DNA of 64,000 nt from an uncultured virus (IMG/VR IMGVR_UViG_3300035698_024194) (lineage: Duplodnaviria; Heunggongvirae; Uroviricota; Caudoviricetes), in IMG/VR virus record IMGVR_UViG_3300035698_024194. One strand, written 5' to 3'. Positions 4,262-43,428 of the stretch are shown here, piece by piece. Every line of letters begins with the position of its first letter. The first letter of the stretch is position 1. The position numbers were made by a program, and so were the translations under genes. Under the pieces are notes generated by a model. It was not told the DNA's origin, searched no databases, and saw only the letters and a list, made by a program, of their open reading frames with translations.

Positions 4262-5044
4262 TTAACCTTTTATTATTGCTTCTGCTCTGTGCATATGAAT
4301 ACTTTCATCTGAAGCTACCTTAATTTTAAAATAATCAATATCATCAATAGCAGCTAATTTTTCATATACGCTTCTTGCTACATCCTCAACAAACATAGGA
4401 TTATCATATGCTCGTTCAGTTACAATCTTTTCATCAATACGTTTAAGAACTGAATATATTTCACATGAACATGATTGTTCACATATTTTTACAATATCTT
4501 CAATCCAAATCCATTTGCCATCATTCGGCCATATATCAGTTGTGATATAACACTTTTGATTATGAGCACCTGCAGTAGATATTTCTTTACTACAAGGGCA
4601 AAGTGATGTACCAACTGTCTCAACTGAGAACTTCCAGATATATGAAGATTCTGTTTTAGTACCATCAAATATTATTTTATGATCAATTAATCCTGGTTCC
4701 TTGCTTGCAGGAGCTAACTTCTCAATAAAATAATGAAACTCATAAATTACTTGACAAATTTCTGCTTTTGAAACTTGCCTGATATTTTCAGCAATATCCT
4801 TTATTATGGTACCATTTAATGACTGATTCAAATATTTATGAAGGCCAATGGGTAACCTACTCATATTAATACCTTTTTTATCACTAGCCAGGTCTACATA
4901 ACAAGAAACTTTTGCTACACTTGTTTGGATTTTGCCAGTTTCACTTTGAATTGAAATAGGAAGAGTTAAATGAGAAACCCCAACACGATTTAATTTAACT
5001 TTAACACGTGGGACACTTTGTTGCACATCAGGCATATTTTCCAT
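4262..5044 (-). CDS. folE2: GTP cyclohydrolase IB (FolE2)
   Basis: KGINMSR, TSLCPCSKEIS, GAHNQ, LKRIDEK, NPMFVEDVAR, ESIH motifs. Confidence 0.95.
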   Translation of the reverse strand: MENMPDVQQSVPRVKVKLNRVGVSHLTLPISIQSETGKIQTSVAKVSCYVDLASDKKGINMSRLPIGLHKYLNQSLNGTIIKDIAENIRQVSKAEICQVIYEFHYFIEKLAPASKEPGLIDHKIIFDGTKTESSYIWKFSVETVGTSLCPCSKEISTAGAHNQKCYITTDIWPNDGKWIWIEDIVKICEQSCSCEIYSVLKRIDEKIVTERAYDNPMFVEDVARSVYEKLAAIDDIDYFKIKVASDESIHMHRAEAIIKG

Positions 5045-8000
5045 TATTTGGATTCCTCCTTCTTACTATTTTGTTTTATCAATGCATCCAAAAGCTCAGA
5101 TTTAACTTCCACATCAGCAAAATCTGCTGCAGTTATACCCAAATCATATTCAGCTGGAGGAAGTTCTTGTTCATTGATTTTAAATCCAAGACCCATTGAT
5201 TGTTGCATACATTGAAATACTCTTAGTGATTGACTTACATGATCCTCTTTATGGTCATCCCATAAAAGGTCATCATTTTGTATCATCCCACCAATATAAT
5301 CATTTCTATATTTGATGGAATCCGATTTTGTAGTATTTATTTCTTGAAGATTTTCCATTGCATCATGAGCAATATATGACCACTCTTCCATTTCACCAAT
5401 TCTTTGTCCACCTTTTCTGATTTTACCATGAAGTGGTTGATTAGTTTTACTGGCATAAGGTCCTATACCTCTACAAGCGTGTTTATCTTTTGCAATATGA
5501 TTTAGTTTTTCAAAATACATAAATCCAAATGCTACATCATTTAAAGTATTCTGCCCTGAGATTGGCTCAAAGCAAGGATATTCATATTTAGATCCTGTAT
5601 ATTCCATTGCTAAATTTAAATCTTCAATCATTACAGACTGATATGGTGGCTGAATTAAATACCAATCATTAATTCTTTCTAGAAATTCATGAATTTTTAT
5701 GCTATTTAAATAAGCCTTCATCTGTTTTGTATAATTTTTTCTAGGTTGGGTAGTCTTATCAATTAACTCAATAAAACCAATAATATAATCATATATATGT
5801 ACCTGAAGTTCATTATACATTTCAACTTGTGATTCGTGTAGGTTATTGACATCAACATCAAGTTTCGTTTTCTCTACTATCAATTCTACACCGTCCACAA
5901 ATTTCTTTTTAATTGCTTCTTTCAAATCATAAAATGATTGAGATAAATGAAGCTCAAACAATTGCCCAACATTCATTCTTGATATAATACCTAATGGATT
6001 AATAATAATTTCTGCTGGTAACCCATCTGCACATAATGGCATTTTATCTTCTGGGACGATTATTGATATTACACCTTTGTTACCATGACGATTACCTAAC
6101 TTATCACCTATTTTCAAAGGCCTTTCATATATTGCAGTTATATTAATAAGTATACCATCAATGGTTTCACCTTTTATTTTATAGCGACCTTCTTCTTTAT
6201 TTGATTCATCAATTTCGAGATCAAGTAAAAATTGCTCTAACTCGTCTTTTGTTAAATGATGTCTCAAATTAGAAATAAGATCATTCTTCCTTTCATTTTG
6301 GGATTGTACTTTATTTTGTACCCAATTCTCAAATACCGGAAGAAGTTTATTTTTCTTGTGGACAAATATTTTTACATCAGCTACAATACAATTTTCATCC
6401 ACAGTCTTTTCACTTGGTAAATCAAATACACTATCATTATATCCATCTCTCTTATTACTTAAGGTTTTTATAATAGCATACACGTCTCCCTTTTTCATTC
6501 TATCTCCAACTACTGGGAGAGGTTTATAATTATCTGGATCTGTTTTAAGATCTAATAGCACTTTGTCTGTACCCAATTCAAATGTCAAATCAAGGTAATG
6601 AAGCGATGTAAACTTTTCCTGACATGCCTCATTTACAATTATACTATCTTCATAATTATACCCATACCACGGCATAATACAAGTTCTTAACTGACGACCA
6701 ATATTTAATCGCCCATCTTTTAAGAAATTACTTTCAGCTACAATATCACCCTTTTCAAATGTTTCAGGTAATTGTTCTTCAATTGGAAGCGATTTATTTA
6801 TTTCTTCTGAATTAAAATAAGTATTGTAATAATCTACAACACTTAGTCTACTCTTTTTAAATCCGATATTATATGCCCGGCATTTATTATTATCATACTG
6901 GACAATTACAACATCACGATCTTTAAATATAACTTTTCCATTTCGTTCTGCGTGAAATATAAAAGAAGTAAATTGAGTATACATACCTTCAACACCAGAT
7001 TGCATCCAAGGCACATCAAATTCCTTAAGCATAATAGAATGTCTCATTTGTGATGACGCCATCTGAAGTCTTGTAGGGTCATCATGCTCAAGAAAAGGAA
7101 TATGTGATATTGATAGTGATGTAATAACTGGACTCTTATTTTCTGGAAATAAACCATCTGAACACATTTCCATAGGAGGCACAATATATTGTAATGCTCC
7201 ACAATTTTCCCTATCACCTGTATCTGCAGGACAAATTCTTCCTCTCATACTAGGATGTATATCCCTTAAATAAGGAGGAATATTATCTTTCTTAAACCCT
7301 CCAGGTCCTGTTAAAGCAACACGACTCAATCTCGCTAATTCATCAAGAGGATTAAGAGGTGCTTCATATTGGATTACTGGAGAAGTATTGGCATTTACCA
7401 ATATTATCTTTGAGTTATTTGAAAATGTGTCTCTTCTTGATCTCTTAAGACTCATTATCATATTATAAAAATCTTTTGCTAAGAAATGATAAAGGAAATA
7501 TTCCATACATCTCAGACGTTTATTTGCAAGATTACAATCATCAATTGCAGGATTATTAACCGCCCATACCAATTCTTCAATAAGGTTATCACTGTGCATA
7601 TATTTCTTTGAAAATACATCTATCTCAGTAATAAGCAATATATTCTCAATTATTTCAGAATCAGTTTTACCTCTGAAATACTTATTGAATATTTTAGTTG
7701 TGTCAAGAACTTCATCATTGAGAAGTACAAACACATCCTCATATAATTGTTTCTGACTTTCATTTTCAAACACATCTCCGTCTTTTAATGTAAACCTTTC
7801 ACGAAGTGCGTCTGCTCCATATAGAGCATGTAAGAAAAACACAAGTGGTATTTTCTTATTGAATATATTTACTACGTAATAATATCCAGACCTTCTGTTA
7901 ACTACATAATCCATTTGGACTGTCTGGATATTGGTTCTGATTTTAAGAGTATTACCTCTTGTTATCAAAGGTTTATCAAACATCTGATAAATAGGAATTT

Positions 8001-8310
8001 TCCTATTCCCTCCAATATAAAAGTAATTACTCTGCAACCAAGGGATTTCATACTTTAACTCAATTGTTTTAGTACCCCCCTTGATTGAAAGCTCAATTTT
8101 CAAACTACGAGATATTGTTTTCTTTATCTCTGCCTGATCAGGTTTCTTCCGACTAGATAAAGAAATCTTTTGGATAATTATATCATACTTTTCAGCACAC
8201 TGCAACATGTCCTGAATAGTAGATACAATTTTAGCATCCTGGAATTCCTTTTGTCGGAAGTTGAAAACATTTTCTCTAGGTAATTTATACCTTGGTACAA
8301 TTAAATCCAT
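5044..8310 (-). CDS. rpoB: Multisubunit RNA polymerase beta subunit, set 1 (probably non-virion)
   Basis: RDIHPS..GRICP, HDD..R..M.S.QMR, GYNYEDS, GDKLGNRHGNKGVI, NPLGIISRMNVGQ, GGQRIGEME. Confidence 0.95.
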   Translation of the reverse strand: MDLIVPRYKLPRENVFNFRQKEFQDAKIVSTIQDMLQCAEKYDIIIQKISLSSRKKPDQAEIKKTISRSLKIELSIKGGTKTIELKYEIPWLQSNYFYIGGNRKIPIYQMFDKPLITRGNTLKIRTNIQTVQMDYVVNRRSGYYYVVNIFNKKIPLVFFLHALYGADALRERFTLKDGDVFENESQKQLYEDVFVLLNDEVLDTTKIFNKYFRGKTDSEIIENILLITEIDVFSKKYMHSDNLIEELVWAVNNPAIDDCNLANKRLRCMEYFLYHFLAKDFYNMIMSLKRSRRDTFSNNSKIILVNANTSPVIQYEAPLNPLDELARLSRVALTGPGGFKKDNIPPYLRDIHPSMRGRICPADTGDRENCGALQYIVPPMEMCSDGLFPENKSPVITSLSISHIPFLEHDDPTRLQMASSQMRHSIMLKEFDVPWMQSGVEGMYTQFTSFIFHAERNGKVIFKDRDVVIVQYDNNKCRAYNIGFKKSRLSVVDYYNTYFNSEEINKSLPIEEQLPETFEKGDIVAESNFLKDGRLNIGRQLRTCIMPWYGYNYEDSIIVNEACQEKFTSLHYLDLTFELGTDKVLLDLKTDPDNYKPLPVVGDRMKKGDVYAIIKTLSNKRDGYNDSVFDLPSEKTVDENCIVADVKIFVHKKNKLLPVFENWVQNKVQSQNERKNDLISNLRHHLTKDELEQFLLDLEIDESNKEEGRYKIKGETIDGILINITAIYERPLKIGDKLGNRHGNKGVISIIVPEDKMPLCADGLPAEIIINPLGIISRMNVGQLFELHLSQSFYDLKEAIKKKFVDGVELIVEKTKLDVDVNNLHESQVEMYNELQVHIYDYIIGFIELIDKTTQPRKNYTKQMKAYLNSIKIHEFLERINDWYLIQPPYQSVMIEDLNLAMEYTGSKYEYPCFEPISGQNTLNDVAFGFMYFEKLNHIAKDKHACRGIGPYASKTNQPLHGKIRKGGQRIGEMEEWSYIAHDAMENLQEINTTKSDSIKYRNDYIGGMIQNDDLLWDDHKEDHVSQSLRVFQCMQQSMGLGFKINEQELPPAEYDLGITAADFADVEVKSELLDALIKQNSKKEESK

Positions 8311-8327
8311 AATTCTACATCTCCCTT

Positions 8328-11081
8328 TTATTTTAGAGGTTGATTAGTCATTATTTTTTCCAATATCCCATTCTGTTTTCCTGGACGTAGAATACCTTCA
8401 ATTATATAATCTCTCGGTTTATGAAATGCTAATGCAAGAAGCCAACTCTCCCGATCAGGTACACTCAAAATAGATACCAATTCAGGATTAATGTCATCTC
8501 TCTCAGGCATAAGTCTCCAAAGTTCATTTTTACATCTCATCATTTGAGAAACTACACATTCAAAATGTACCATCAACAAATTCCTATGTTTGGAATATAT
8601 TCTATAAAGATCAAGAACAAGTCCATCATAAGAACATTTAGTATTACAGTGTAACAAATTACGAACAGAAGTTAAATCAGAAACAATATCTTCTTGCTTT
8701 CCCCCTGTCGCTTTTGTTGTTGTTTGAGCAACACCTGATGTATGGAATGTTCTCATTACTAACTGAGTACCAACTTCACCCAAAGCCTGACCTGCAATAA
8801 TACCAATATATCTCGACTTAGTTATTTCATAAAGTTTCCCATAACAAGTTTTACACAATTTTCTTGATTTACAAAAGATAGGAGATCTTAGATGGACAGT
8901 TTTACCTTCATCTGTTTTAACATCATAATAACTCATATAATTTGCCAAAGTTATTAATACTAATTTTCCATCAATAACATCATATCTTCCTACTAGAGAT
9001 CGAGCCATCTTCTGACTTATAACTTTAAAATTTAATGTATCCTTTGTTCCACAATTATCAACAGATTCATCAATTTCTAGTTTAGAAGAACTGTATACGA
9101 TTTTTCTTGTTAGATATCCTGATACTCCAGTATTTAGTGCAGTATCAAGCAATCCTTTACGTGTACCATAAGAAGAATTAAAGAATTCTTCTTCATTCAA
9201 CCCATGAACATAATTATTCTTTATAGGTTCTTGAATAATATCTCCTGATGAATTAGAAACATATCCACGAGTCAATATAATCTGTGTAGCTTGATCCCAT
9301 GATCCACGTGAACCAGATTCAATAAAAGCAGAATATCCAAAATGCGATTTTACTTCGTCCATCATTTCTTTGCTTTTGAGGGCATTTATTTTATCATTGA
9401 TGGTCATTTCAGTATTCTCATAAATCTTGCTGGCTAGTTCAACTGCTTTGGGAAGATGCATTCCTTTTAAAGAAATAGTACTTCCGTGTATTGTTGTTTG
9501 TTTAAACCCTAACTGTTTAACTTTGTCTAGACATTCCCTTACTTCAATAGGATAAATTCTAGCAACGTCATTTAAAATAACTGTTAAGAGTTTCTTTGTT
9601 ATTGCCCGATTAAATAATTTCAATCCCTTTTCAGACAATAATTGTTTAATATATACATCAGGAAGAGTATTGAAGAATTTGATTCTTCCTTCAGTTGTCA
9701 TTATACCATTATACTCGGCTGGAGGGGTTTCACCATCAAGAGTAAGAAGATATATACCAAGAACAATATCTTGATTAACTCCTATAATTAAATCTCCAGT
9801 AGAAGGAGAAATTAAATTTTGTGATAATGAAAGCTTTTCTACACATTCCTTTTCTGCAGCTTTTGATAATGCTCTATAAATAGCCATCTGATCACCATCA
9901 AAGTCAGCATTAAAAGGTTCACAAGCCATTGGAGGAATTTGGATTACATATTCTTTATTAGGGAATATTTTAAATCCAAGGACACCCATTCTGTGAAGTG
10001 TAGGTTGTCTGTTTAGAGTAACCGATTTGCCTGTACATACTTTACATACAGCTTCCCAAAGACAAAAATCTTCTTTCTTAATACAATCATCAATATGACT
10101 CAAAGCCATATCATAAGTTTTAAATTTTCTCTTTGCATGAAGATAATTTGCTAGCTCAAGTTTATATAACTCAAGAAGCATAATATAAGGTACTCTACAC
10201 TCGTCAATCTTCAAAGGAGGATCAGGAGTAATAACTGCTCTACCAGAAAAATCATTTCTTTTTCCTAAAATAGAGTCTCTAATAATCCCTGTCTTTTTAC
10301 TAAATTTATCAAGAATAAAATCATACAACTGGAATACAAACCTTTGGAGGTTTCTTGTATTCACAGCAAGTATTTTTGGATCTTGATCGGATTCCAGAAG
10401 TTCATCATTTTTAGTTAAAGCGAAATTCAAAATTGTCAATATATAATCATTCAATTGATCTCGCTTCTGGACATCTTTTGTTTTACTTATTGGTCGAAAT
10501 GCAGGAGGACATACAATGACATATTGCATAAAGAATTTGCTCATGTTATCATAAATATATTGCCAATCCTCTTCCTCATCCTTTCTTTCATTTGCACGAT
10601 TTAAAACAATGTCATATATTCCTTTTAAGCCGGAATATAAAATAACCCCTTCAGGCATGGTAGCAAGTTTTTCCTCATCTACCATAACAAACTTTTTAAT
10701 CTCTTCACTCCAGTATGTACCAATTATCGTTTCGGAATACATCAATTTATCAAGTACATCCTTCAATGTAATCTTTCCAATTTTAATAATAAGATAATAC
10801 ATAATAGGATTCATTATTGCTAAGGGTAGACGAATTTTAGCATATCGTTTTCGTCTTTCGCTTGAGTGAGCAATTTCAACATCACATATACTACATACAG
10901 TTCCTTTTTTAGCTCGACCCATATAATTACCGCATGCGCAAGTATAATTTTTTACAGGTCCAAATATTTTTTGTGAAAACAACCCTTCTTCATGAAAATC
11001 TCTTCTCGAATACAATTTATTTGATGTTACCTCGGGAAGAGATTTACATACTTCATCTACATTTTGAAATTCGATCCTCAT
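8328..11081 (-). CDS. rpoC: Multisubunit RNA polymerase beta' subunit, set 1 (probably non-virion)
   Basis: GLFSQKIFGP with CxC..CxxC zinc finger, LGKRNDFSGR, NRQPTLH, catalytic NADFDGDQM, GYLTRK, TQLVMRTFH. Confidence 0.97.
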   Translation of the reverse strand: MRIEFQNVDEVCKSLPEVTSNKLYSRRDFHEEGLFSQKIFGPVKNYTCACGNYMGRAKKGTVCSICDVEIAHSSERRKRYAKIRLPLAIMNPIMYYLIIKIGKITLKDVLDKLMYSETIIGTYWSEEIKKFVMVDEEKLATMPEGVILYSGLKGIYDIVLNRANERKDEEEDWQYIYDNMSKFFMQYVIVCPPAFRPISKTKDVQKRDQLNDYILTILNFALTKNDELLESDQDPKILAVNTRNLQRFVFQLYDFILDKFSKKTGIIRDSILGKRNDFSGRAVITPDPPLKIDECRVPYIMLLELYKLELANYLHAKRKFKTYDMALSHIDDCIKKEDFCLWEAVCKVCTGKSVTLNRQPTLHRMGVLGFKIFPNKEYVIQIPPMACEPFNADFDGDQMAIYRALSKAAEKECVEKLSLSQNLISPSTGDLIIGVNQDIVLGIYLLTLDGETPPAEYNGIMTTEGRIKFFNTLPDVYIKQLLSEKGLKLFNRAITKKLLTVILNDVARIYPIEVRECLDKVKQLGFKQTTIHGSTISLKGMHLPKAVELASKIYENTEMTINDKINALKSKEMMDEVKSHFGYSAFIESGSRGSWDQATQIILTRGYVSNSSGDIIQEPIKNNYVHGLNEEEFFNSSYGTRKGLLDTALNTGVSGYLTRKIVYSSSKLEIDESVDNCGTKDTLNFKVISQKMARSLVGRYDVIDGKLVLITLANYMSYYDVKTDEGKTVHLRSPIFCKSRKLCKTCYGKLYEITKSRYIGIIAGQALGEVGTQLVMRTFHTSGVAQTTTKATGGKQEDIVSDLTSVRNLLHCNTKCSYDGLVLDLYRIYSKHRNLLMVHFECVVSQMMRCKNELWRLMPERDDINPELVSILSVPDRESWLLALAFHKPRDYIIEGILRPGKQNGILEKIMTNQPLK

Positions 11082-21247: not shown

Positions 21248-21589
21248 TTATAAATGCTTAATTTCATCTTCAATTTCTAATTTAAAACATATTTCATCTG
21301 CTTCTTCACACAATTCAAGGCTATTTAAATTAATCCAACCAAAAGGAATTGTGGCCACAGCCTCCTTATATTTAAGTAATACATCTACTGTAATACCAGG
21401 TTGAATTGAACTATATGTATATATGATATTATGAACTCTAACTAATCCCATCAATTCTTGGGACCCTTTAATCGAAAACATATGTTCAATATTATGCCTA
21501 TTACCTGGATTAACATGAAATCGTATTACTTTGCCATTGAATAATTTAGCTACTGTTTGATTTGTCATATTATTCCCTCTCGGGTCCAA
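21248..21589 (-). CDS. Small hypothetical protein of the IM[FW]KL motif family
   Basis: Ends EEADEICFKLEIEDEIKHL; likely start MTNQT. Confidence 0.7.
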   Translation of the reverse strand: MDPRGNNMTNQTVAKLFNGKVIRFHVNPGNRHNIEHMFSIKGSQELMGLVRVHNIIYTYSSIQPGITVDVLLKYKEAVATIPFGWINLNSLELCEEADEICFKLEIEDEIKHL

Positions 21590-24845: not shown

Positions 24846-24876
24846 ACAACTCTCCTTAAATAAGTTAACTTTTAAA

Positions 24877-31996: not shown

Positions 31997-32428
31997 TTAT
32001 ATACCAAATTCGCTCATAGTTTTTTCAATTGCTCCATCAGCCTTTACTTCAATCTTCTTAAAATCATTTGAAAGATTAGTTGTTAGTTTCTCTGCATATT
32101 TAACACTAGCTTCTCGTGAAGCTGCTTCCGATTCAGGAATTTTAGCAAAATTAACATCTTTAAATTTGTTTAATCTTCCATCAATTTTTTCACTTCTTTT
32201 TAATAAATCAGATAATTGTTTCACTTCAGTAACTTCACTTTTAACTGGAAACAATTTAGAATTCTTTGTAGCACTTGATATCTCTCTTATTTTATTTCTA
32301 ATATCAGTTTGTAAATTTCGATTTGTTATTTTAATTCTTGATACTAATGATTTAAGTTTATTTGCAAATAATACATTAGGAAATTTTAATAAACTTCCCT
32401 CACGTAAATAATAATTTAATACTTTCAT
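31997..32428 (-). CDS. Hypothetical protein (possible virion protein)
   Basis: ATGA-coupled to rpoB set 2; N-terminal YYLREG. Confidence 0.65.
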   Translation of the reverse strand: MKVLNYYLREGSLLKFPNVLFANKLKSLVSRIKITNRNLQTDIRNKIREISSATKNSKLFPVKSEVTEVKQLSDLLKRSEKIDGRLNKFKDVNFAKIPESEAASREASVKYAEKLTTNLSNDFKKIEVKADGAIEKTMSEFGI

Positions 32429-35400: not shown

Positions 35401-36558
35401 AAATGTAGATCTCAAATCTTTTTCAAATGAGTTTTCAAAATCTTGAGTTCTTTTATTTAATATATGACTAGGATCTTTATAGTTATTAAGAGCTGATATA
35501 TTAACTGCTGAATTTACAATTTCTCTAGATACATTTACAGGTTTATCACTTAGAACAATATCACGTATCAATTCTTGTCTAGTTATTTTTAATGCTTGTT
35601 CTTTATTTTTTATTGGATTTATTTGTTTATTGGCAACTTCAGTTTTACCAGTAAGATTATAAATAATAGATTTAGAAGCCACTTCAGATTTTTGCTGTCT
35701 ATTCAATATCTTTGTTTTAATTATCTTTTTTAAATCAGGTTTAGCATTAACATATTTTCTTACTGATTGCCTTATTACTTCTTTTTGTTTACTTTCAGAT
35801 TCAGGAGGAGCAACATTAGGATCATCTGATATTTCAGGAATCAAATCAATATCATTTACAATTTCTTCAGCTGCCTCATCCGCTTCATTAAAATTATCTT
35901 CATCTGTTTTTAATGATTGTATATTCTTTAAAAACATATACATTCTATTATACGGAACTGAATTTTCTTCTGTTATAAATGCTGTATAAATTAATTTGCC
36001 TTTTCTTTTCAATGCAAGTATAAAATATTCAAACATAAATTTTCCATCTTTTTTATATTTAAGTAAAAGAGGAAATACTTTACGTTTGAATACACTAGGA
36101 GCTAAATCTTTATCAAGATCAACATAATACATAAATATTCGTTTAGTACCTTGTGTAACTTCTGATACTTGATCCATATATCTTAACACACTTGTATATG
36201 GTAATGCTGACCGATAATGTTTAGGTTTGAATTGTTTTTCTAATGATATAAGAAAAGGAGAAACATCAACAAAGAAATTTTTCTTTAATTTATCAACTTT
36301 CATCCTTGGCATTAACTTAAGATATTTTCGATATGGAATTAAAATATTTGCTTTTATAATTAATCGAGGACGCTTACTTGGTTGAATGTGAACATTTCTT
36401 GCATCTTGTCTAAGAATTCCTAAATTATGATACGCAGCAATTAAACTTGAATTTTCAGGAAAAAATATAATTGAATATTTTTCACCTGAAGAAATCTCCG
36501 GAATACGGATTCGTTTGGTTTTAAACGGATAGCTACGTAACTTATCAATTCTTATCAT
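32425..36558 (-). CDS. rpoB: Multisubunit RNA polymerase beta subunit, set 2 (probably virion), with long N-terminal extension
   Basis: GTFLINGK, NPLEELS, GPGG, H.SYYG..DP.DTPEG, DDGNR, GYVFEDG, GDKLANRHGNKGVI, NRMNPGQ, GGQRAGE. Confidence 0.95.
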   Translation of the reverse strand: MIRIDKLRSYPFKTKRIRIPEISSGEKYSIIFFPENSSLIAAYHNLGILRQDARNVHIQPSKRPRLIIKANILIPYRKYLKLMPRMKVDKLKKNFFVDVSPFLISLEKQFKPKHYRSALPYTSVLRYMDQVSEVTQGTKRIFMYYVDLDKDLAPSVFKRKVFPLLLKYKKDGKFMFEYFILALKRKGKLIYTAFITEENSVPYNRMYMFLKNIQSLKTDEDNFNEADEAAEEIVNDIDLIPEISDDPNVAPPESESKQKEVIRQSVRKYVNAKPDLKKIIKTKILNRQQKSEVASKSIIYNLTGKTEVANKQINPIKNKEQALKITRQELIRDIVLSDKPVNVSREIVNSAVNISALNNYKDPSHILNKRTQDFENSFEKDLRSTFSLLAKKKDFPLKIESIKSEKIASDPGDLDPTQEKLYTIVLKDERNKKHNVEIRIPMLTKDGTFLINGKKKYLMYQIILDPIFFLKKWMVKLETLYAAATIESKRLKAKQYLKIYIAGQELPLMLLMGYYLGFNEACKKFNIKYKLQNEKPEKDVFSLEMKGGGYIVPEYTTEHARQYLMSFNEIDFPFTVENILETGIFEKAIVKQTRNLNSPYSIGEVLKNIMEPVAVQVLKSKMLPFTFEDCVVYMTERVVEGRVDKRNDLTGQRVRSSEVFNHQILKQVLKSYNTYRLQRVSGDKNAEYRCDTDRVIKEITNSKLVRNLENVNPLEELSCLTRTTPIGPGGVPNKVAITEPARGTHESYYGNLDPMDTPEGDTIGVINQLAIGAAVTNARGSFISDVTFDKGVDVLGTSSILTPFVNSDDGNRVQFSCSQSRQAVSVVGNEPALCQTGYETILTNMLSDSYIKKAPVDGVVVETNENVIIIKGKNGKLYKESLKPQLLNSAQGQDAISPFKTVVKRGQNVKAGKILAEGKHIVNGTISTGTNLLVAIMGWKGYVFEDGYVISDALVNNKLASNHYFEKTIIVKKGDKIRYIATEGKDTLKGEPLIIRTSSEIEELIGLGEDEIEGGEIKTKSPGGKILSVEIYPNISLRSFPVLQEPFVVFKKKYEEQYGEFPAKFTKKVGFEKMIPSGVIIVFKLEDHYPAELGDKLANRHGNKGVITYVEKEENMPMSPWGERIQIIYNPLSVVNRMNPGQLYEMYVSTIAKFAAKQLVAWGSKKTKKAVDYIVKIYRGLDNTKGKKYSSDIAKLFNSMSALKYSNFIKDIEARNYFLPIIVPQFKTPTRKQIQDVMKFVGVKSSYNLALPEYGGKKTLRKASVGYMYFNKLEQQASIKMGARSTAMYQSKTLQPTAGKKRDGGQRAGEADVNMILSHGATHVLKEFLGPLSDDQSTKNEIISEIIQTGSASYREPRTSPTRNLLSVYMTSLGLSE

Positions 36559-36576: not shown

Positions 36577-37323
36577 TTAATATGAATATGCTATTTGTAA
36601 CTTATCTCCTACTTCGAGAACCCCATCAATTGAAGTTCCATTCCATGATAATATAGTACCTGTAACATTAAAATCTACCCCTTCATCTTGTGTGACTCCG
36701 CCATAAACAGTCATTATCACATATGCATCATTTTCTGGTATTTGTGATAATGTTACCTCTGCTGCCACTATACTAGTAGAATCTAATGTAAATTTATCAA
36801 CTACAACTGTAGATGTCCCCCCAATCCCCCCGTCTGATAATTTAGCTCCTATATAGCTAAATATATCACATTTAGCATTTGAATCTAAACCTAGACTATC
36901 TTCAGATGTAATTATACCCACAGCAGGATCAATAACCCAATCAGCGGTATCCCCTGCATATATTCTTGTTGACGTTCCTTTATTTCTCCAAAATATAGCT
37001 TCATAAGCCACGCCAACAGCATCAGGAATGATGTCGTATACTCTTTCACCTGCGTTTGCATGTCCCGTTGGATATTTTAAATAATAAGCTTTTCCATTTG
37101 ATGTAACATCTAATTCAAGATCACATTCTACTGCTTCAGCAACAGAAGCAAGAACAGCAGTAGTAGAATCGCTTGATATTGCATCAGTCCATACATTATC
37201 AGATAGTGTGATAATCCAACTAGGATTAGCTTCGTTAGAAATCTCTTTGTCATTAGAAGTATGACTTTTACCATATATTTTTTTTACCGCCATGTTGGTT
37301 TTACTATCAATTGTTAATGGCAT
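36577..37323 (-). CDS. Putative virion structural protein
   Basis: Acidic, Ser/Thr/Gly-rich; C-terminal GVTQDEGVDFNV...GDKLQIAY beta-sandwich pattern common in phage structural proteins. Confidence 0.65.
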   Translation of the reverse strand: MPLTIDSKTNMAVKKIYGKSHTSNDKEISNEANPSWIITLSDNVWTDAISSDSTTAVLASVAEAVECDLELDVTSNGKAYYLKYPTGHANAGERVYDIIPDAVGVAYEAIFWRNKGTSTRIYAGDTADWVIDPAVGIITSEDSLGLDSNAKCDIFSYIGAKLSDGGIGGTSTVVVDKFTLDSTSIVAAEVTLSQIPENDAYVIMTVYGGVTQDEGVDFNVTGTILSWNGTSIDGVLEVGDKLQIAYSY

Positions 37324-38341
37324 TCAATTTCTCCTTACATATTATTTTTTCTACTTTTATTCCATTTTTATGTATACAATTTCCATTATTTAAATAAGTC
37401 CACCCTTTAGTTAAATTATTTTGTCGACAAAATCTAGAAAAATTTTTTATAATTTCATAATGAGAATCATTAAAAATAATTTTATATTCTTTTCCTAGAT
37501 TTCTAGATAAATGATCTCTCTCATCGTCAGAATAAATATGTCCATACATTCCATTATTTTTTCCACTATTTTTAACACCTATTTTCTTTTTTACTTCATT
37601 AGTATGGGTGAATTTTCTTCCTCTAATAGAAGCTTCTTCCCTTAATTCTTTTGCGCGTTCTTCTCCATACATCCCCACCCATGTCTTCCCTTTTCTTGAA
37701 ACTGACATTAAATACTTCGTCTTTTCAGATTGATGTTTTCCATATAAATAATGATTTTCTCCACTAATTGACTTACTTTGTTTTCTTTTTGATTCTTCGC
37801 TTCTACAAATACCTTTGTGTTTATCGCTCATTTTCTTTAAAGAAAATTTAGTATGTTTATGACCATAATAAGGATTATTAAAACCTGTAACATCTCTATT
37901 TTTAGCCAATTCAATACATTGTATTTTTCTTTTTCGTTTTTGTTCTTCATTATATTTATAACCTGATGTACCTTCTCCTCCATCAGTCATATTTGTTAAA
38001 GGTCCTAATTTTAAATCATTTCTACCTATCATCCATATTAACCAAATCTCTAAATCAAAAGTTACTTGTTCTTTTAAATTATCTTCAACTTTTAAAATTA
38101 TAGGTTCTAAATTTTCTTTTAAAATTTTTCTAATCTTATTTAATTTATGAGGATTACATACACATTTCATATTTATATGATCATTTAAAGCTTCTTTTAA
38201 ATGAGCAGCGTGTTGATTATTTTTACCTTTACCAACATAAAAAGGTTCATATTCAAATGTATATTCCCCATATGTAAAAGATCCTTTTTTACGAGGATCT
38301 AAATAAATGTAAGTATAAAATCGATTTATATTTTTTTCCAT
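37307..38341 (-). CDS. Homing endonuclease (GIY-YIG-like catalytic domain plus NUMOD3 repeats)
   Basis: FYTYIYLDP..EPFYVGKG, LE..LI..IGR....GPLTNMTDGGEG, repeated NPYYGHKH/LYGKH/MYGH; TAATG start at 38341. Confidence 0.85.
   Translation of the reverse strand: MEKNINRFYTYIYLDPRKKGSFTYGEYTFEYEPFYVGKGKNNQHAAHLKEALNDHINMKCVCNPHKLNKIRKILKENLEPIILKVEDNLKEQVTFDLEIWLIWMIGRNDLKLGPLTNMTDGGEGTSGYKYNEEQKRKRKIQCIELAKNRDVTGFNNPYYGHKHTKFSLKKMSDKHKGICRSEESKRKQSKSISGENHYLYGKHQSEKTKYLMSVSRKGKTWVGMYGEERAKELREEASIRGRKFTHTNEVKKKIGVKNSGKNNGMYGHIYSDDERDHLSRNLGKEYKIIFNDSHYEIIKNFSRFCRQNNLTKGWTYLNNGNCIHKNGIKVEKIICKEKLNAINN
37927..38149. repeat. 223-bp direct repeat, copy 1 (shared homing endonuclease core)
   Basis: About 9 mismatches versus 62124-62346 by manual comparison. 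Confidence 0.9.
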
Positions 38342-40305
38342 TAACTTGCATTCCAAGTAATACTTATTTGAGTTAAATATCCTGTCCAAGATGCTCCTGC
38401 CGCGATTCTAAAATACATTCTATCACCAGAATTTGCAGAACTTTTAGTTCCAACCGTTATACCAAGATTAACTGTAGGGATTGTAATATCATTACCTAAT
38501 GTAGCAGAATAAGCTCCATCTCCATCATCCCATTTATTAGTTTCAAATGCTTTTATAACATCTAACCAGCCAGTTGAATTCCCTGAACTTGGTGGAGTTG
38601 ATCCTGGTAATTTAATTTCCATTGATATATGATTGGCTCCAGTAAAACTAGCTACATTTACTAAAGTAGCTGATCCTTGAATGTTTAATCTAAAGTTAGA
38701 AGCTGCTGTAGCATTATTAAAATACCCATAAAAATATCTTGTACCCGATGCAGATGAATAATCAGGATTGCCAGCAGGAGCTTCTCCTATTGAGCTAAAA
38801 TCATATGTAGGATATATTAATCGTGAATTATAACATTGTAACTCAGATGTATATGTTCCAACCAATGATGTAGCACTATTATAATTAACTACAAGAGTTG
38901 TATTATTAAAATCACTAGTTGCTTCAAATCTTCTATCTTCACCAGTAAAATATTGAGCAGGGGCAGTAGCTGAATCACTATTTGAATCAAGTAAAAGATT
39001 ATAATTATTAGTGATACTTGATGTTTCAGTACCTTGTAATGTCCTATATATTCTTGTACTTATACCAAGTTGATTTCCTGATCCTCCTTGATATAAAGGT
39101 AAAATTCTATTAGAATCAACTGTAACTATTTTATTTGTAATTGCAATAGTATCTGTTTCAGTTGCCATGACAGGTATTGATGAAGAAGCTACTGCACAAT
39201 TAGTTGTCGTAGGATGACTAATAGCTGAAGAATTTGAACTATATGTATTTAAATATGCATTATTAACTATAACATCATATCTAGCACTTCCTGCTGTATG
39301 ATATTCAATACCAGAAATATCATTTGATCCAGTCATTGCAAGCGTATCAATAATAGGAGAAGAAAATGTTGTATCAGTTATCTCATCATCAACAACCCAT
39401 GTAAATATATTTGTAACTAATCCGCCTTCGCTATGTTTAATTTGAATTGTATTATATCCATCTACAAGGTCAGCATTATCTACAACATATGTTCCTATTC
39501 TATATTTTCTTCCTGGAAATGTTCCACCAGCTGAAAATTCTACTGCCGTGGCTGCTCCTAAAATAAATCCTGTACCATTTCCATTTGTTGTAGTTCCTGA
39601 ACTATATGTAGTCAAGTCGACTGTGTGCTCAAGTGAACCATTTACCCATATAGTTAAAGAACCTTTATCACCACCACCAAATGCGTCGGCAGGATAAGCA
39701 TAAGCATGAGCAGGTATATCATCATTTAATGTACCTGTTAAACCTTGACTAGCTGTTATTATACCGCCATTATTTCCTGATTGAGTATAAGTATTATTTA
39801 TATCAAGTGATGGATGATCAGTATATCCTGAAATAGTATTACTTATACCAAATGAAAGTTTACCAGTTACACCAGATTCATTCCTTGATATTTGATCCAA
39901 ATTAGGTGCTGCTGGGGGAACTAATTCACCTAATACAGCATTCATTTCTTCTACTATGTTTGCCGCATTTGAAGTACTATCAATTGAAACTGCTCCAGGA
40001 TCAATATCACCAGATGAAGTTGTTCCAAATTCAAATGATGTAAAATCTAAATCACCCAGTGCAGTATTTATTTCTTCTACTACATCCGCCGCATTTGAAG
40101 TACTATCAATTGAAACTGCTCCAGGATCAATATTACCAGATGAAGTTGGTCCAAATTGTAATGATGTAAGACTTGAGGCAGTAGTTACTTGACGTTTAGT
40201 AACGAGATCAGTAGGGTTAATTGCATCTGCAGCATTAGTAAACCGCTTTGAATTACAATCTACATCTTCTGTAATTTCTAACCATCTTGAATTTAATTTA
40301 GTCAT
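38341..40305 (-). CDS. Putative virion structural (tail/fibre-like) protein with a 42-aa tandem duplication
   Basis: Ser/Thr/Gly/Asn-rich 654 aa; N-terminal ADAINPTDLVTKRQV; preceded by a late-type motif. Confidence 0.7.
   Translation of the reverse strand: MTKLNSRWLEITEDVDCNSKRFTNAADAINPTDLVTKRQVTTASSLTSLQFGPTSSGNIDPGAVSIDSTSNAADVVEEINTALGDLDFTSFEFGTTSSGDIDPGAVSIDSTSNAANIVEEMNAVLGELVPPAAPNLDQISRNESGVTGKLSFGISNTISGYTDHPSLDINNTYTQSGNNGGIITASQGLTGTLNDDIPAHAYAYPADAFGGGDKGSLTIWVNGSLEHTVDLTTYSSGTTTNGNGTGFILGAATAVEFSAGGTFPGRKYRIGTYVVDNADLVDGYNTIQIKHSEGGLVTNIFTWVVDDEITDTTFSSPIIDTLAMTGSNDISGIEYHTAGSARYDVIVNNAYLNTYSSNSSAISHPTTTNCAVASSSIPVMATETDTIAITNKIVTVDSNRILPLYQGGSGNQLGISTRIYRTLQGTETSSITNNYNLLLDSNSDSATAPAQYFTGEDRRFEATSDFNNTTLVVNYNSATSLVGTYTSELQCYNSRLIYPTYDFSSIGEAPAGNPDYSSASGTRYFYGYFNNATAASNFRLNIQGSATLVNVASFTGANHISMEIKLPGSTPPSSGNSTGWLDVIKAFETNKWDDGDGAYSATLGNDITIPTVNLGITVGTKSSANSGDRMYFRIAAGASWTGYLTQISITWNAS
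39927..40175. repeat. 126-bp tandem duplication inside structural gene
   Basis: gccgcatttgaagtactatcaattgaaactgctccaggatcaata at 39962 and 40088; encodes TSSG[ND]IDPGAVSIDSTSNAA twice. Confidence 0.9.
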
Positions 40306-40335
40306 TCATAAAACCCCTTTAAACAAGGAATATAC

Positions 40336-40349: not shown

Positions 40350-40407
40350 TAGTTATATTTATAGGTTGCTTGTCGCGCTTCACTTATTTTTTTCTTAGTT
40401 TCTTCCA

Positions 40408-43400
40408 CTAAAGATTCCCAGTAACAAGCCTTTCTAATATTGACTCATCAGGAGGTCTCGGGTAAATCATAGCTGTTTCAATACTTTTATTAAAATTCTC
40501 AAATTCTAATGATGATAACCAAGATTCATATACTGGTATATTTTTAATATTAGTAACAATTGCATCATATTTACCAGGATTCAATCTTGCAGGCATTCTT
40601 GGATTAATTTTATCTCTTAATAAATTACTAACCACTGTTTCAAAATGTACAAGATCTGCATCACTTTCAGAAGCATATTGATCAAATACCTTCATAAAAA
40701 AATGTTGTTCATCTTTCCACGCTTTTCTTCCTGATAAAAGAGCAGTTGTAACTTTAACTGCTTGTGTAAAATCTGTAGATGTTGGTTTAGCAGTCAATAC
40801 AGTATTTCCTTTTTTAACAGGTATAATTATAGTATTTTCATCTTCATCATACCCATCAGGAATATTTATATCAATTTCATAATCTAAAGTAATGTCAAAC
40901 TCTTTTCCCCCTGATCGTAATATAAAATAACCATAAGCTAGTTTAACAGTATCATTTATTTGGATATCAGCTTTGGGATCCATGAAGTCTGATTTTTTAA
41001 TTTCAATTGTGCAATCATTATTTGCAATCAATTGACTATCTTTATCAATGAATAACTTTTTAAATTCTTTTTTAGTCATTTCATCATAATTGTCAGTTGT
41101 TTGACTTATCAAATCAATTGAGTCAATTCCTACAGCCCCCCCTGTATGGAAAGTTCTCATAATTAACTGAGTACCTTTTTCACCTATAATACTTGCAGCA
41201 ATAATCCCAACATATGGAGAATCATTTCTAAGAGCTAATTGTCCATAACATGTAAGACAAAGTTTTCTTGATTTACAATATAAAGGAGATCTTAAAAGAA
41301 TTTTCTTATTTGTATCTGTCTTAGGATTAAATAAACGAAGTATTCCTTTTTTAGTCATTATTACTCTGCCTTCAAGCCTTTTAGCTATATCAGGTTTTGC
41401 AATTATTTCAAGATATTTTTTTGTTTTACAATCTTTAATCCTTGTATCAACTTCAACACTTTGACAAGCATAAATTAATTGTCTTGCAAGATACCCAGTA
41501 GTAGCAGTATTTAATGCTCTATTAACAATACCTTTTCTTGTTCCTGGTGATAATTCAAAGTATTGTTTTGAATCCATTCCGTCTGCAAATGCTGTGTCAA
41601 ATGGAGGTAACACATTACCTTCCACATCAGCAATTAATCCTTTAGCTACAAGTACTTGCCTTAGCTGACCATATCCACCTTTAGTAACTCCAGCTTGTGC
41701 TAGAATTGATAATCCATTATCAGGTTGAGTTTTTAAGAATTTCTCTAATTCTTTTTCCATTTGATCTAAAATCTTTTGAGCTGTTTCTGGGTCGGTACCT
41801 TTAAGTTGTTTTTTTAATTTAATTAATGAAGGCGGTATATCAAGATCGTTAATTGCAAATGATCCAGGAGCGATAGTATAATATTTAAATCCCAACCTTA
41901 ACATATCATCACAAAATTTACGATACACTTCTTCATTATATTTTCTAAATACTTGATTCTGAATAGATTTGAATTTACTTTTAGTTATTGGTTCATTTAC
42001 AAACGGATATGATTTAGGTAAATTTTGATTAAATAATACTCTACCTATTGTTGTTTTTTCTCCGTTATATGTTACCCCTTCATAAATTTTAAAATCATCA
42101 ATTTCTCTTTCATCCTTTAATACAGGGAAAGATTTAGGTAAAGGCTTTGGTGTACGAGTAGCCGCAAACATACCCGCAATTGAGTCTGCTGAGAAACTAA
42201 GTGATGTTTTTCCCATACCATCTTTAGATTCAGTAGTCATCATCTTGTCTTTAGCTTCTTGTATTGCTTCGTTTGTTACAGGTACAAAAAGAGCCATTTG
42301 ATCGCCATCAAAATCAGCATTATATCCATCACAAAGTAAAGGATTTAGTTTTAAAACTTTTCCCTCTACTAAAATAGGATAAAATGCTAATGTACCTTCT
42401 GAATGTAAAACAGGATCTCGTTTTGCAACAACTACTTTATCAGTTAATGCATATGAAATAGCTCGTCTTATATTATCTTCCAATTCTTTAGGAATTTCAT
42501 CCCCTTTATATATTCCATCAAGCAATGTACGAATACTACTAACTGATAATTCAGTTTTATTATATTCATACACAAGTGATTTAAGATTGTCTTTATCAAT
42601 TGATTTGCTATTGAGTAATTGAAATACAATAAATGGTTCAAATAATTTAACAGCAATTTGCATAGGAACTCCTATTTCATTGCTCTTTAATTCATTACCT
42701 GATCCCACAACAACTGCTCGGGCTGAATAATCAACTCTTTTTCCTAAAATATCATGTCTAATTAAACCTTCCTTCTTTGATATCTTAGAAGATATATATG
42801 AATATAAATCCTGAACCTTTTGTTGCATATTAGATGATAAAATATCAAATATAGTACCTTCTGGGATCATTGTTAGCTGTAAAGACAATCTAAGAATTTC
42901 TAAATAATAATCATTAATTTCATCATATTCTGCTACTCCACCCCCCTCTACACGAATATCTCTAAAGGCTACAGGCATTACAGGATATTTAGATATAAAA
43001 AATAAATCTTTTCTGATAAATTCATTTATTTTTTTTACAAGTCTATCTCGTTGTTCTGTCCCACCACGAAATTTTATTTTATCCATATTCTCAATAACAC
43101 TTGAAATCCCATGTATTATTCCTTCTTTATCAGGAACTAATGTACCAGCAGCATCAATATTATATCGTCCTTCCCTATTAATTGCATTTAATATATTTCT
43201 ACTAAGTCTTTTTAAGATAGCTATCAATGAAGGGTGTATAACTTTTGTATTCAAATCAATAAATCCAAAAGTAGTTGATCTTTCCTTTGTTTCAATTGGC
43301 CCAAATATAACTTCTGAAAACAATCCATCAGGATGAAAAGTTCCTTTTGTTATATGGATTTCAGTTGATGATACTTCCTTTAATTGACTTGCAAATTTTT

Positions 43401-43428
43401 CAACATCTAAAAGTTTAATAACTGACAT
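40408..43428 (-). CDS. rpoC: Multisubunit RNA polymerase beta' subunit, set 2 (probably virion)
   Basis: GLFSEVIFGP, LGKRVDYSAR, KRDPVLH, NADFDGDQMA, TGYLAR, TQLIMRTFHTGG; N-terminal zinc-finger Cys absent. Confidence 0.97.
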   Translation of the reverse strand: MSVIKLLDVEKFASQLKEVSSTEIHITKGTFHPDGLFSEVIFGPIETKERSTTFGFIDLNTKVIHPSLIAILKRLSRNILNAINREGRYNIDAAGTLVPDKEGIIHGISSVIENMDKIKFRGGTEQRDRLVKKINEFIRKDLFFISKYPVMPVAFRDIRVEGGGVAEYDEINDYYLEILRLSLQLTMIPEGTIFDILSSNMQQKVQDLYSYISSKISKKEGLIRHDILGKRVDYSARAVVVGSGNELKSNEIGVPMQIAVKLFEPFIVFQLLNSKSIDKDNLKSLVYEYNKTELSVSSIRTLLDGIYKGDEIPKELEDNIRRAISYALTDKVVVAKRDPVLHSEGTLAFYPILVEGKVLKLNPLLCDGYNADFDGDQMALFVPVTNEAIQEAKDKMMTTESKDGMGKTSLSFSADSIAGMFAATRTPKPLPKSFPVLKDEREIDDFKIYEGVTYNGEKTTIGRVLFNQNLPKSYPFVNEPITKSKFKSIQNQVFRKYNEEVYRKFCDDMLRLGFKYYTIAPGSFAINDLDIPPSLIKLKKQLKGTDPETAQKILDQMEKELEKFLKTQPDNGLSILAQAGVTKGGYGQLRQVLVAKGLIADVEGNVLPPFDTAFADGMDSKQYFELSPGTRKGIVNRALNTATTGYLARQLIYACQSVEVDTRIKDCKTKKYLEIIAKPDIAKRLEGRVIMTKKGILRLFNPKTDTNKKILLRSPLYCKSRKLCLTCYGQLALRNDSPYVGIIAASIIGEKGTQLIMRTFHTGGAVGIDSIDLISQTTDNYDEMTKKEFKKLFIDKDSQLIANNDCTIEIKKSDFMDPKADIQINDTVKLAYGYFILRSGGKEFDITLDYEIDINIPDGYDEDENTIIIPVKKGNTVLTAKPTSTDFTQAVKVTTALLSGRKAWKDEQHFFMKVFDQYASESDADLVHFETVVSNLLRDKINPRMPARLNPGKYDAIVTNIKNIPVYESWLSSLEFENFNKSIETAMIYPRPPDESILERLVTGNL

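Follow-up and report, generated by a model that had tools for sequence, protein, structure and literature searches.

Two undivided multisubunit RNA polymerases in an uncultured phage related to the mReC lineage, and their probable correspondence to the virion and non-virion enzymes of phiKZ/AR9-type phages

The stretch of DNA analysed here (the window) covers 64,000 nucleotides of an uncultured virus (IMG/VR record IMGVR_UViG_3300035698_024194). Its minus strand holds four undivided genes for RNA polymerase (RNAP) subunits, two encoding beta and two encoding beta', as had been claimed in an earlier note made from the letters of this DNA alone (Table 1). The Rpb2_6 domain was detected in the two beta proteins with E-values of 6.6e-49 and 2.2e-34, and Rpb1_2 in the two beta' proteins with E-values of 4.2e-26 and 9.9e-29. 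Both beta retain the motif GDKxxNRHGNKG, and an intact NADFDGD is located at residue 391 of beta'1 and at residue 370 of beta'2; judging from these sequences, both cores are probably catalytically intact. The zinc ribbon formed by C48, C50, C63 and C66 is found in beta'1 only, these cysteines being absent from set 2, while a second zinc site is kept in both proteins (C677, C737, C743 and C746 in beta'1; C667, C718, C724 and C727 in beta'2). Identity between the two sets amounts to 24% for beta and 28% for beta'.

Table 1. Features of the window discussed in the text
Feature	Coordinates	Strand	Description
beta1	5044..8310	-	1088 aa; Pfam Rpb2_6/3/7; GDKLGNRHGNKG at residue 735; set 1, non-virion-like
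beta'1	8328..11081	-	917 aa; Pfam Rpb1_2/5/3; 17 bp upstream of beta1; set 1
beta2	32425..36558	-	1377 aa; Pfam Rpb2_6/3/7; GDKLANRHGNKG at residue 1094; set 2, virion-like
248-aa ORF	36577-37323	-	between beta'2 and beta2
GIY-YIG/NUMOD3 homing endonuclease	37307-38389	-	between beta'2 and beta2; Pfam and PHROG
654-aa ORF	38341-40305	-	between beta'2 and beta2
beta'2	40408..43428	-	1006 aa; Pfam Rpb1_2/5/3; no N-terminal zinc ribbon; set 2
Candidate promoter region	45919..46060	.	142 bp, divergent intergenic; based on gene layout
Sigma-like promoter-specificity subunit homologue (AR9 gp226/phiKZ gp68 family)	47489..48916	+	475 aa; PHROG, family profile, fold

The window also lacks an alpha or omega gene, as the same note had observed. 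No match to an alpha, omega or sigma family was found among its 71 ORFs of at least 70 aa. The alpha N-terminal domain (PF01193) and sigma70_r2 (PF04542) were present in none of the five relatives searched, positive controls being included. These data support the view that both enzymes are whole, alpha-less and of phage type.

The earlier description of set 2 as lying among virion genes is correct in part. ORFs next to the set have no annotation, and tail/baseplate-like genes (for PAAR, baseplate wedge and amidase proteins) begin approximately 5.5 kb away, at 49-56 kb. Among the three ORFs that separate beta'2 from beta2 (36577..40305), Pfam and PHROG identify the endonuclease only, and the 654-aa ORF gave no lead in Pfam, PHROG or Atlas. 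When the 654-aa and 248-aa ORFs were used as tblastn queries, no counterpart was found in the RNAP loci of four relatives (G001-G004), in which beta2 comes approximately 0-900 bp after beta'2. Upstream of set 2, the minus-strand block of the set-2 genes and a plus-strand block whose last gene is the sigma-like one diverge from a gap that, by this layout, is a candidate promoter region. From 18 intergenic gaps, a k-mer search returned AT-rich words and ribosome-binding sites only, with no promoter classes and no decisive motif.

The 475-aa ORF at the end of this plus-strand block has been assigned to the family of AR9 gp226 and phiKZ gp68 by three approaches. It matches phrog_25005, which corresponds to AR9 gp226, at an E-value of 1e-6. 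A profile built from 44 of its homologues had a sole match among 177,635 PDB sequences, namely 7S01_A (AR9 gp226, E 1.1e-5); the ORF alone as a query gave no match in a direct PDB sequence search. Finally, its AF2 model (pLDDT 89.9) retrieved three PDB structures in all with Foldseek at E <= 0.001, which are AR9 gp226 (twice) and phiKZ gp68.

Scanning IMG/VR with single sequences revealed no close relatives of the window, and the relatives described here were recovered with an alignment query. Two beta' loci are present in six of the nine IMG/VR relatives searched (G001, G002, G004, G005, G006 and G008), the remaining three being fragments rated 58, 33 and 48% complete, and two beta loci are present in three of the four relatives searched for beta. 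The dual RNAP architecture is therefore conserved among relatives. The metagenomic homologues nearest to beta'1 and those nearest to beta'2 have longest contigs of the same lengths, 104,052 and 330,572 bp. Two relatives, G003 (179,636 bp) and G005 (149,482 bp), agree in metagenome number and length with contigs listed in the tables of the paper that described the mReC, the multi-subunit-RNAP-encoding Caudovirales (Weinheimer & Aylward 2020, PMC7481178), which bears out the earlier guess that this phage is a relative of that group. In a tree of the N-terminal region of beta' (beta'-N tree), both contigs group with the window in a set-1 clade (support 100/99) and in a set-2 clade (98/90). Both beta' of the window fall outside the NCLDV (100/100) as well as outside the bacteria, and clustering apart from cellular and NCLDV sequences is one criterion used for mReC. 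PMC7481178 reports a capsid of the T4 gp23 type for mReC phages; a major capsid protein of this type (PF07068/VOG11186) and a PF03237-type terminase are further characters of the lineage. The window itself carries no capsid gene, and relative G002 encodes a 'major head protein' (phrog_20655/138), a portal (phrog_213) and TerL (phrog_2). The window is best explained as probably part of the genome of an uncultured mReC jumbo phage, a lineage with T4-like capsid and replication modules.

The position of the bacterial sequences also bears on an alternative origin of the duplication, in which one of the sets would be a captured host rpoB/rpoC pair or the product of a chimeric phage-bacterium assembly. 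Even though the best PDB scores of both sets are to bacterial beta and beta', identity to any bacterial beta' (80 loci) is only 27-32%, and neither set nests inside bacterial RpoB/RpoC, the bacteria being monophyletic (98/99) to the exclusion of both. In addition, GC content is even along the full length of the window, at approximately 30% (0.286-0.323), and the two-set layout is repeated in six independent contigs. This origin, which we consider extremely improbable, has been rejected on the basis of the low identity and the bacterial monophyly.

Dual undivided sets had in fact been tabulated before. The supplementary table of PMC7481178 includes beta of approximately 1000-1050 residues with beta' of approximately 900-975, and beta of approximately 1360-1386 with beta' of approximately 1004-1017, and contigs having both types of pair are labelled _a_/_b_. 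No discussion accompanies these pairs: sections of the main text handle the mReC RNAP as a single marker and, supplementary figures aside, contain no mention of RNAP duplication, of phiKZ/AR9 or of a sigma-like subunit. The duplication is also undiscussed in the other literature searched. What is new here is the pairing of the sets with the virion and non-virion enzymes, the gp226/gp68 homologue, and a beta' split site common to relatives and phiKZ-type phages.

The phages phiKZ and AR9 likewise possess two paralogous beta/beta' enzymes devoid of alpha and sigma70, together with a gp68/gp226-type subunit (PMC7598289; KU878088). Pfam models barely detect the pieces of these enzymes, so clade HMMs and PHROGs were used for the comparison, the PHROG families being labelled through the annotated virion and non-virion pieces of AR9. 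With PHROGs, the matching AR9 paralogue is preferred by beta1, by both halves of beta'1, by beta2 and by the N-terminal half of beta'2. Among split-phage families, beta1 scores best with PHROG 3295 (AR9 non-virion beta-C; 162 bits, compared with 64 for PHROG 3148, of virion type), and beta'1 has higher scores with PHROGs 2987 and 3015 (AR9 non-virion beta'-N and beta'-C) than with 2986 and 2962. Conversely, the best split-phage matches of beta2 are PHROGs 3148, 14872 and 38251 (AR9 virion beta), and beta'2 matches PHROG 2986 (AR9 virion beta'-N) with 147 bits versus 72 for 2987. The clade HMMs gave similar preferences. Virion beta'-N pieces scored 94-184 bits with set 2 versus 19-43 with set 1 in all five phages, and set 1 was preferred by three of the four non-virion beta'-N pieces detected; beta'-C pieces did not discriminate between the sets with these HMMs. 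For beta, the virion proteins scored 66-89 on set 2 versus 0-20 on set 1 (4/4), and the AR9 non-virion pieces favoured set 1 (beta-C, 155 versus 111; beta-N, 82 versus 0).

The zinc ribbon follows the same division. A segment of approximately 28 residues that contains it is missing at an identical position from all 11 set-2 proteins, from the G008_a protein and from the five virion pieces, and is present in all 10 set-1 proteins, in four of the five non-virion pieces and in 18 of 19 bacteria. Set 1 therefore retains the ribbon like most non-virion enzymes.

The beta'-N tree (65 rows x 482 columns, LG+C20+F+G4) separates both sets plus the phiKZ-type enzymes from bacteria, other phages and NCLDV (100/100). 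Within this clade, set 2 groups with the virion pieces and G008_a (98/96), and set 1 with the non-virion pieces and G008_b (87/87). Two other regions are uninformative on the pairing of the sets. The tree of the beta DPBB region is poorly resolved, its ML topology weakly uniting set 1 and set 2 (66/20), and in the tree of the beta' middle region the virion pieces adjoin set 1 (87/57); constraining virion pieces and set 2 to group costs only 2.6 lnL in the former (p 0.141) and 2.4 lnL in the latter (p 0.422). Merging N- and C-terminal pieces as single rows produced 50-168 clashing columns per phiKZ-type row, so this alignment was dropped and no tree was built from it.

Independent duplications in mReC and in phiKZ/AR9 have to be weighed against this pairing. 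In that case, the resemblance of set 2 to the virion enzymes in its zinc ribbon and long beta N-terminus would result from convergence or from a long-branch or rate artefact, and both enzymes would be intracellular, used for instance at different times, with neither of them packaged. An AU test does not reject virion and non-virion pieces as one clade (delta lnL 13.2, p 0.233), and the two regions just described either weakly unite the sets or fail to place the virion pieces with set 2. Moreover, the other modules of this phage are T4-like and not phiKZ-like, and the zinc ribbon, being absent also from fused single-set phage RNAPs, can evidently be lost more than once. Nevertheless, the best-resolved region pairs the sets with their phiKZ-type counterparts, although long-branch attraction would tend to unite the phiKZ-type branches with each other; the ribbon gap of set 2 coincides in position with that of the virion pieces; profile preferences are consistent over five phages; and a gp226/gp68-type subunit is common to both lineages. 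For these reasons, independent duplication is regarded as unlikely, even if it deserves serious attention. The correspondence of set 2 to the virion RNAP and of set 1 to the non-virion RNAP of phiKZ/AR9 is moderately supported by the beta'-N tree, the zinc-ribbon deletion and the reciprocity of the profiles. The link to the two-enzyme phages drawn in the earlier note stands at that same strength, the sigma-like subunit adding to it and the AU test leaving the rival topology in place. The pre-split state suggested in that note remains a hypothesis, given that the rival topology survives the AU tests and that the other two regions are uninformative.

A further resemblance to the virion enzyme concerns the N-terminal extension of beta2, which had been noticed from the sequence and is real: beta2 is homologous to beta1 and phiKZ-type beta from near residue 351-363 onwards, leaving approximately 360 residues. 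A comparison of beta2 with phiKZ-type virion beta by hhalign gave a probability of 99.7 over columns 363-1126, and the extension itself had no match to the virion beta N-terminus at the sequence level. Segment HMMs of residues 1-226, 1-380 and 227-480 matched only members of the window's own clade. A fold model of residues 1-400, of mediocre quality (pLDDT 66.7), had two BFVD matches with E <= 0.001, one to a PBS1 protein of 921 aa and one to an unnamed protein of 1393 aa. The possible tie between the extension and the N-terminus of virion beta comes from this fold match of a mediocre model.

According to the explanation that we favour, with a probability of roughly 0.55 for the whole, set 2 corresponds in undivided form to the virion RNAP and set 1 to the non-virion RNAP, and the duplication that gave rise to them preceded the fragmentation of the phiKZ/AR9 genes. 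The genome would be transcribed by the phage's own multisubunit RNAPs, lacking alpha and sigma70 and composed of two cores and one gp226/gp68-type subunit. By analogy, set 2 would be made late, packaged in the virion and injected to read the early genes, and set 1 together with the sigma-like subunit would then read the middle and late genes.

The position of the sigma-like gene fits this scheme less well. In AR9 and phiKZ, the subunit belongs to the non-virion enzyme, according to the KU878088 annotation and the relevant parts of PMC9209446. In all four close relatives that have the gene (G001, G002, G004 and G005) it occurs as a single copy directly upstream of beta'2 and in the same orientation, and in the window the two genes are 4 kb apart with the divergent intergenic region in between. 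It thus adjoins set 2 and not set 1 in relatives, the opposite of what a non-virion role would lead one to expect. The orthology could then be right and the roles different, with the sigma-like subunit serving set 2 as part of a promoter-specific intracellular holoenzyme and set 1 having some other role or factor. The proximity of genes carries little weight in phages, and given the membership of the subunit in the non-virion enzyme of AR9 and phiKZ, this distribution of roles is considered improbable.

Under the favoured explanation, the splitting of RNAP genes would be secondary and ongoing in the lineage. In some relatives beta'2 is divided, with an additional ORF between the parts, and the cut is at the same site as in phiKZ-type virion beta': in five of five phages the virion beta'-middle piece stops at beta'2 residue ~765, where the cuts in G001 and G008 also fall. 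Passages of reviews up to 2026 (PMC13282480, PMC7598289) call it unknown whether the two RNAPs of jumbo phages, virion and non-virion, go back to duplication or to two separate acquisitions, and one analysis contains an argument for a primordial split state (PMC7824862). Tentatively, and with somewhat less than even confidence, we propose that both mReC RNAPs are slowly evolving undivided sisters of the phiKZ/AR9 enzymes; that a single ancestral phage RNAP, by then different from the bacterial enzyme and equipped with a sigma-like gp68/gp226 factor, duplicated into virion-type and non-virion-type enzymes before the divergence of mReC phages, with their T4-like capsid, and phiKZ-type phages, or that the pair was transferred as a unit; and that fragmentation was not primordial but secondary, via insertion of mobile elements, still visible in G001 and G008.

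Despite these similarities, clear differences from phiKZ/AR9 exist. Each subunit of their enzymes consists of two to three pieces, in contrast to the single polypeptides of the window, which is also far closer to cellular RNAP (Rpb1_2 scores of 93-101 bits versus 30 or less, or none, in five phiKZ-type genomes). The T4-like capsid and replication modules of the window's lineage set it further apart, and core genes of the phiKZ type were not found. A phmmer comparison with phiKZ, SPN3US, RSL2 and Goslar recovered approximately four common genes beyond RNAP and no match to the shell protein. The lineage falls outside the core-gene definition of the phiKZ-like jumbo phages (group 1 of Iyer et al./Chimalliviridae), which comprises among others a phiKZ-type capsid, a split family-B polymerase and the shell protein, since relative G002 has an unsplit PolB of 1079 aa and T4-like head, portal and baseplate matches. 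Undivided, cell-like counterparts of both enzymes and of the sigma-like subunit provide a much less divergent anchor for rooting trees, and the mReC enzymes also supply natural intermediates of gene splitting. With two polypeptides per core, they are simpler targets for expression, structural and promoter studies of alpha-less RNAPs.

Cultured single-set phages offer another comparison; a collection of 50,697 phage records contains no cultured mReC phage. Like the window, RHph_TM30 (Rhizobium), 1.031.O (Vibrio) and Carin-5 (Cobetia) have a whole beta' (1083-1288 aa) and a zinc ribbon, and Carin-5 shares the gene order of beta' followed by beta. They differ in having one beta' locus per record (tblastn), with 23-28% identity, and they branch outside the clade of the window sets and the phiKZ-type enzymes (100/100). 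In Carin-5, an annotated sigma factor adjoins the pair.

The two RNAP cores of the window phage, set 1 (β1 and β′1) and set 2 (β2 and β′2), are encoded by unsplit genes: the four ORFs named in the earlier note are present on the minus strand, which holds nearly all genes of the window, and each subunit is a single ORF with Pfam RNAP domains. The GC content is ~30% from end to end. Among solved structures (PDB), the top matches are bacterial β and β′ (E 4e-70 and 2.3e-63), with β1 also matched by the AR9 non-virion RNAP chain 7S00_C. As that note had claimed, NADFDGD is intact in both β′ subunits, which also share the second zinc site, and the N-terminal zinc ribbon (CxC...CxxC) is found in β′1 only. 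The motif GDKxxNRHGNKG appears in β1 and β2 alike. The two sets are 24% (β) and 28% (β′) identical, and both show the gene order β′→β. A Pfam scan of 71 window ORFs revealed no alpha, omega or sigma families, in agreement with the lack of alpha and omega noted before. Regarding gene context, set 1 does lie by replication-type genes (helicase and topoisomerase II, together with FolE2 and SbcCD), but the virion genes claimed around set 2 are not its immediate neighbours: its flanking ORFs are unannotated, and tail-like genes (PAAR, baseplate-wedge, amidase) start ~5.5 kb away. Three ORFs separate β′2 from β2, one of them being a GIY-YIG homing endonuclease with a paralogue elsewhere in the window (both GIY-YIG/NUMOD3); the other two have no tblastn match in the RNAP loci of relatives.

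Table. Coordinates of the features discussed in the window
Feature	Position	Strand	Details
β1	5044-8310	minus	1088 aa; Pfam Rpb2_6, Rpb2_3, Rpb2_7
β′1	8328-11081	minus	917 aa; Pfam Rpb1_2, Rpb1_5, Rpb1_3
β2	32425-36558	minus	1377 aa; Pfam Rpb2_6, Rpb2_3, Rpb2_7
β′2	40408-43428	minus	1006 aa; Pfam Rpb1_2, Rpb1_5, Rpb1_3
Sigma-like homologue (AR9 gp226/phiKZ gp68 family)	47489-48916		475 aa; phrog_25005 match, profile and fold
7-deazaguanine pathway genes	4262-5044, 21570-22043, 28187-29209, 12237-13103		FolE2 GTP cyclohydrolase, QueD-like PTPS, radical-SAM enzyme, ThiF-like protein
Homing endonucleases	37307-38389 (within the set-2 gene block), 61723-62595		GIY-YIG/NUMOD3
Topoisomerase II A subunit	22503-24884		Pfam Intein_splicing, residues 88-427
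ORF of unknown function	56080-56712		210 aa; phrog_12252, E 3e-38

Among 50,697 phage genomes no record is close to this phage, every match being below 30% identity. Large metagenomic families exist for both β′ types, on contigs of up to 330 kb; some homologues of both types (P0065, P0370) are filed as archaeal MAGs (Heimdallarchaeaceae, Pacearchaeota), and are probably phage contigs misplaced in cellular bins. Two β′ loci occur in six of the nine IMG/VR relatives searched (G001, G002, G004, G005, G006 and G008), the remaining three, with one locus each, being fragments (58%, 33% and 48% complete). Of four relatives screened for β, three have two loci, and a search run with positive controls detected neither the alpha NTD nor sigma70 region 2 in any of five relatives. 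This layout of two intact catalytic cores without alpha or sigma70 is kept across a wide clade. The T4-like modules of G002 comprise a major head protein, a portal, a terminase and a baseplate wedge, as well as an unsplit family-B polymerase of 1079 aa, a clamp loader, a Dda-like helicase and UvsX. A phmmer comparison with phiKZ, SPN3US, RSL2 and Goslar shows only ~4 genes in common beyond those of the RNAPs.

The window belongs to the published lineage of metagenomic Caudovirales that encode a multi-subunit RNAP (mReC; Weinheimer & Aylward 2020), a kinship guessed in the earlier note, since the supplement of that study (PMC7481178) includes contigs matching G003 (179,636 bp) and G005 (149,482 bp). 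Its tables list exactly the window's two pair sizes, with _a_ and _b_ labels where one contig has both, so those data already contain the dual sets implicitly. The two-set observation is confirmed; duplication and phiKZ are not mentioned in the available main text.

Several lines of evidence suggest, with moderate support, that set 2 corresponds to the virion RNAP, and set 1 to the non-virion RNAP, of phiKZ/AR9-type phages. PHROG families, labelled through the annotated pieces of AR9, score β1 as non-virion (β-C, 162 bits vs 64) and β′1 likewise (β′-N 134 and β′-C 112 vs 69 and 64), whereas β2 (178 vs 117) and the N half of β′2 (147 vs 72) score as virion; the C half of β′2 is ambiguous. With HMMs built from 24 set-2 and 27 set-1 β′ homologues, all five virion β′-N pieces (phiKZ, SPN3US, RSL2, Goslar and AR9) obtained 94-184 bits with the set-2 HMM and 19-43 with the set-1 HMM, and three of the four non-virion β′-N pieces detected preferred set 1; β′-C pieces are not told apart. 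The β HMMs concur for virion β (4/4) and both AR9 non-virion pieces, the non-virion β-C of SPN3US and RSL2 being ambiguous. In the β′ N-terminal ML tree (65 rows x 482 columns, LG+C20+F+G4 by PMSF), set 2 groups with the virion pieces and G008_a, one of the two β′ copies of G008 (98/96), and set 1 with the non-virion pieces and the other copy, G008_b (87/87). The union of both clades is separated from bacteria, other phage RNAPs and NCLDV (100/100); bacteria are monophyletic (98/99), and both window sets stay outside them, without the nesting in bacterial RpoB/RpoC that the earlier note had named as a refutation. In addition, a zinc ribbon of ~28 residues is absent at the same alignment position from 11/11 set-2 proteins, G008_a and 5/5 virion pieces, and present in 10/10 set-1 proteins, G008_b, 4/5 non-virion pieces, 3/3 cultured single-set phages and 18/19 bacteria. 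Many other phage contigs (IMG/VR loci L014-L043) encode a single β-β′ fusion protein of 2000-2500 aa, without zinc ribbon, which branches outside the clade of the window sets.

Two other regions carry little information and do not contradict this. The tree of the β DPBB (44 rows x 396 columns) does not resolve and weakly joins set 1 with set 2 (66/20), and that of the β′ middle region (49 rows x 276 columns) places virion pieces beside set 1 (87/57); constraining virion pieces with set 2 costs just 2.6 lnL (p 0.141) and 2.4 lnL (p 0.422), respectively. A single clade of virion and non-virion enzymes is not rejected by the AU test (delta lnL 13.2, p 0.233).

Within this lineage, gene splitting appears to be in progress. 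In G001 (L117 8126-12059), the two parts of β′2, 783 aa and 230 aa long, flank a 295-aa ORF that belongs to no known family; both β′ of G008 (356 kb, complete; L284, L285) are split (770+138 and 658+332 aa), and many metagenomic set-2 β′ are ~780 aa long. The virion β′-middle pieces of 5/5 phiKZ-type phages end at the same place, around β′2 residue 765. At least the G001 split is derived, because the β′-N tree places its piece within the unsplit set-2 group. In Iyer et al. (PMC7824862), the split state is argued to be ancestral.

The window phage also appears to encode a sigma-like subunit of the gp226/gp68 type, again with moderate support. The 475-aa ORF matches phrog_25005, the AR9 gp226 family, weakly (E 1e-6). 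A library-wide search gave 131 homologues; of 44 of these, 5 also match phrog_25005, and a profile of the 44 matched a single PDB sequence, AR9 gp226 (E 1.1e-5). The three Foldseek PDB matches of its AF2 model (pLDDT 89.9) at E <= 0.001 are AR9 gp226 (twice) and phiKZ gp68. The gene is single-copy and directly upstream of β′2 in G001, G002, G004 and G005; none was detected in the complete G008 genome. This position is a puzzle, since in AR9 and phiKZ the factor is part of the non-virion enzyme (PMC9209446). By analogy with these phages, set 2 would be packaged in the virion, injected and used for early transcription, and set 1 with the sigma-like factor would transcribe later genes; given the synteny of the factor with set 2, the assignment may instead be reversed or shared.

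The novelty lies in this subunit and in the link to virion and non-virion RNAPs. Sokolova's review (PMC7598289) handles mReC as a separate group and considers the origin of both enzymes untraceable, and a 2026 review (PMC13282480) again gives it as unknown. The former alone combines the mReC title phrase with virion/non-virion terms, and no paper linking mReC pairs to these RNAPs was found in the openly available full-text literature.

As for the β2 N-terminal extension, hhalign pairs columns 363-1126 of the β2 family with 526-1425 of phiKZ-type virion β (probability 99.7), but not their N-terminal regions, and segment HMMs of the extension match nothing beyond their own clade. Just two BFVD entries match the AF2 model of residues 1-400 (pLDDT 66.7) at E <= 0.001: one is a Bacillus phage PBS1 protein of 921 aa, the other an unnamed 1393-aa protein. 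AR9 is classified in its record under Takahashivirus PBS1 at species level, and its virion β has a first exon ORF of 932 aa; these fold matches are only suggestive of a link to the virion β N-terminus. Segment HMMs for β2 residues ~66-192 match the same proteins again at ~545-627 (~545-650; one also at 1175-1203), a hint that the extension arose in part by internal duplication of a β lobe region.

The 7-deazaguanine (queuosine-type) pathway genes of the window, together with QueC in G002 (L177:5555-6460), suggest that the phage DNA may contain a modified guanine, with a possible effect on promoter recognition. An intein that includes an HNH endonuclease lies within the topoisomerase II A-subunit gene; the 432-aa counterpart of this gene in G002 is intein-free. 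Finally, the ORF strongly matching phrog_12252 sits between baseplate-like and recombination genes.
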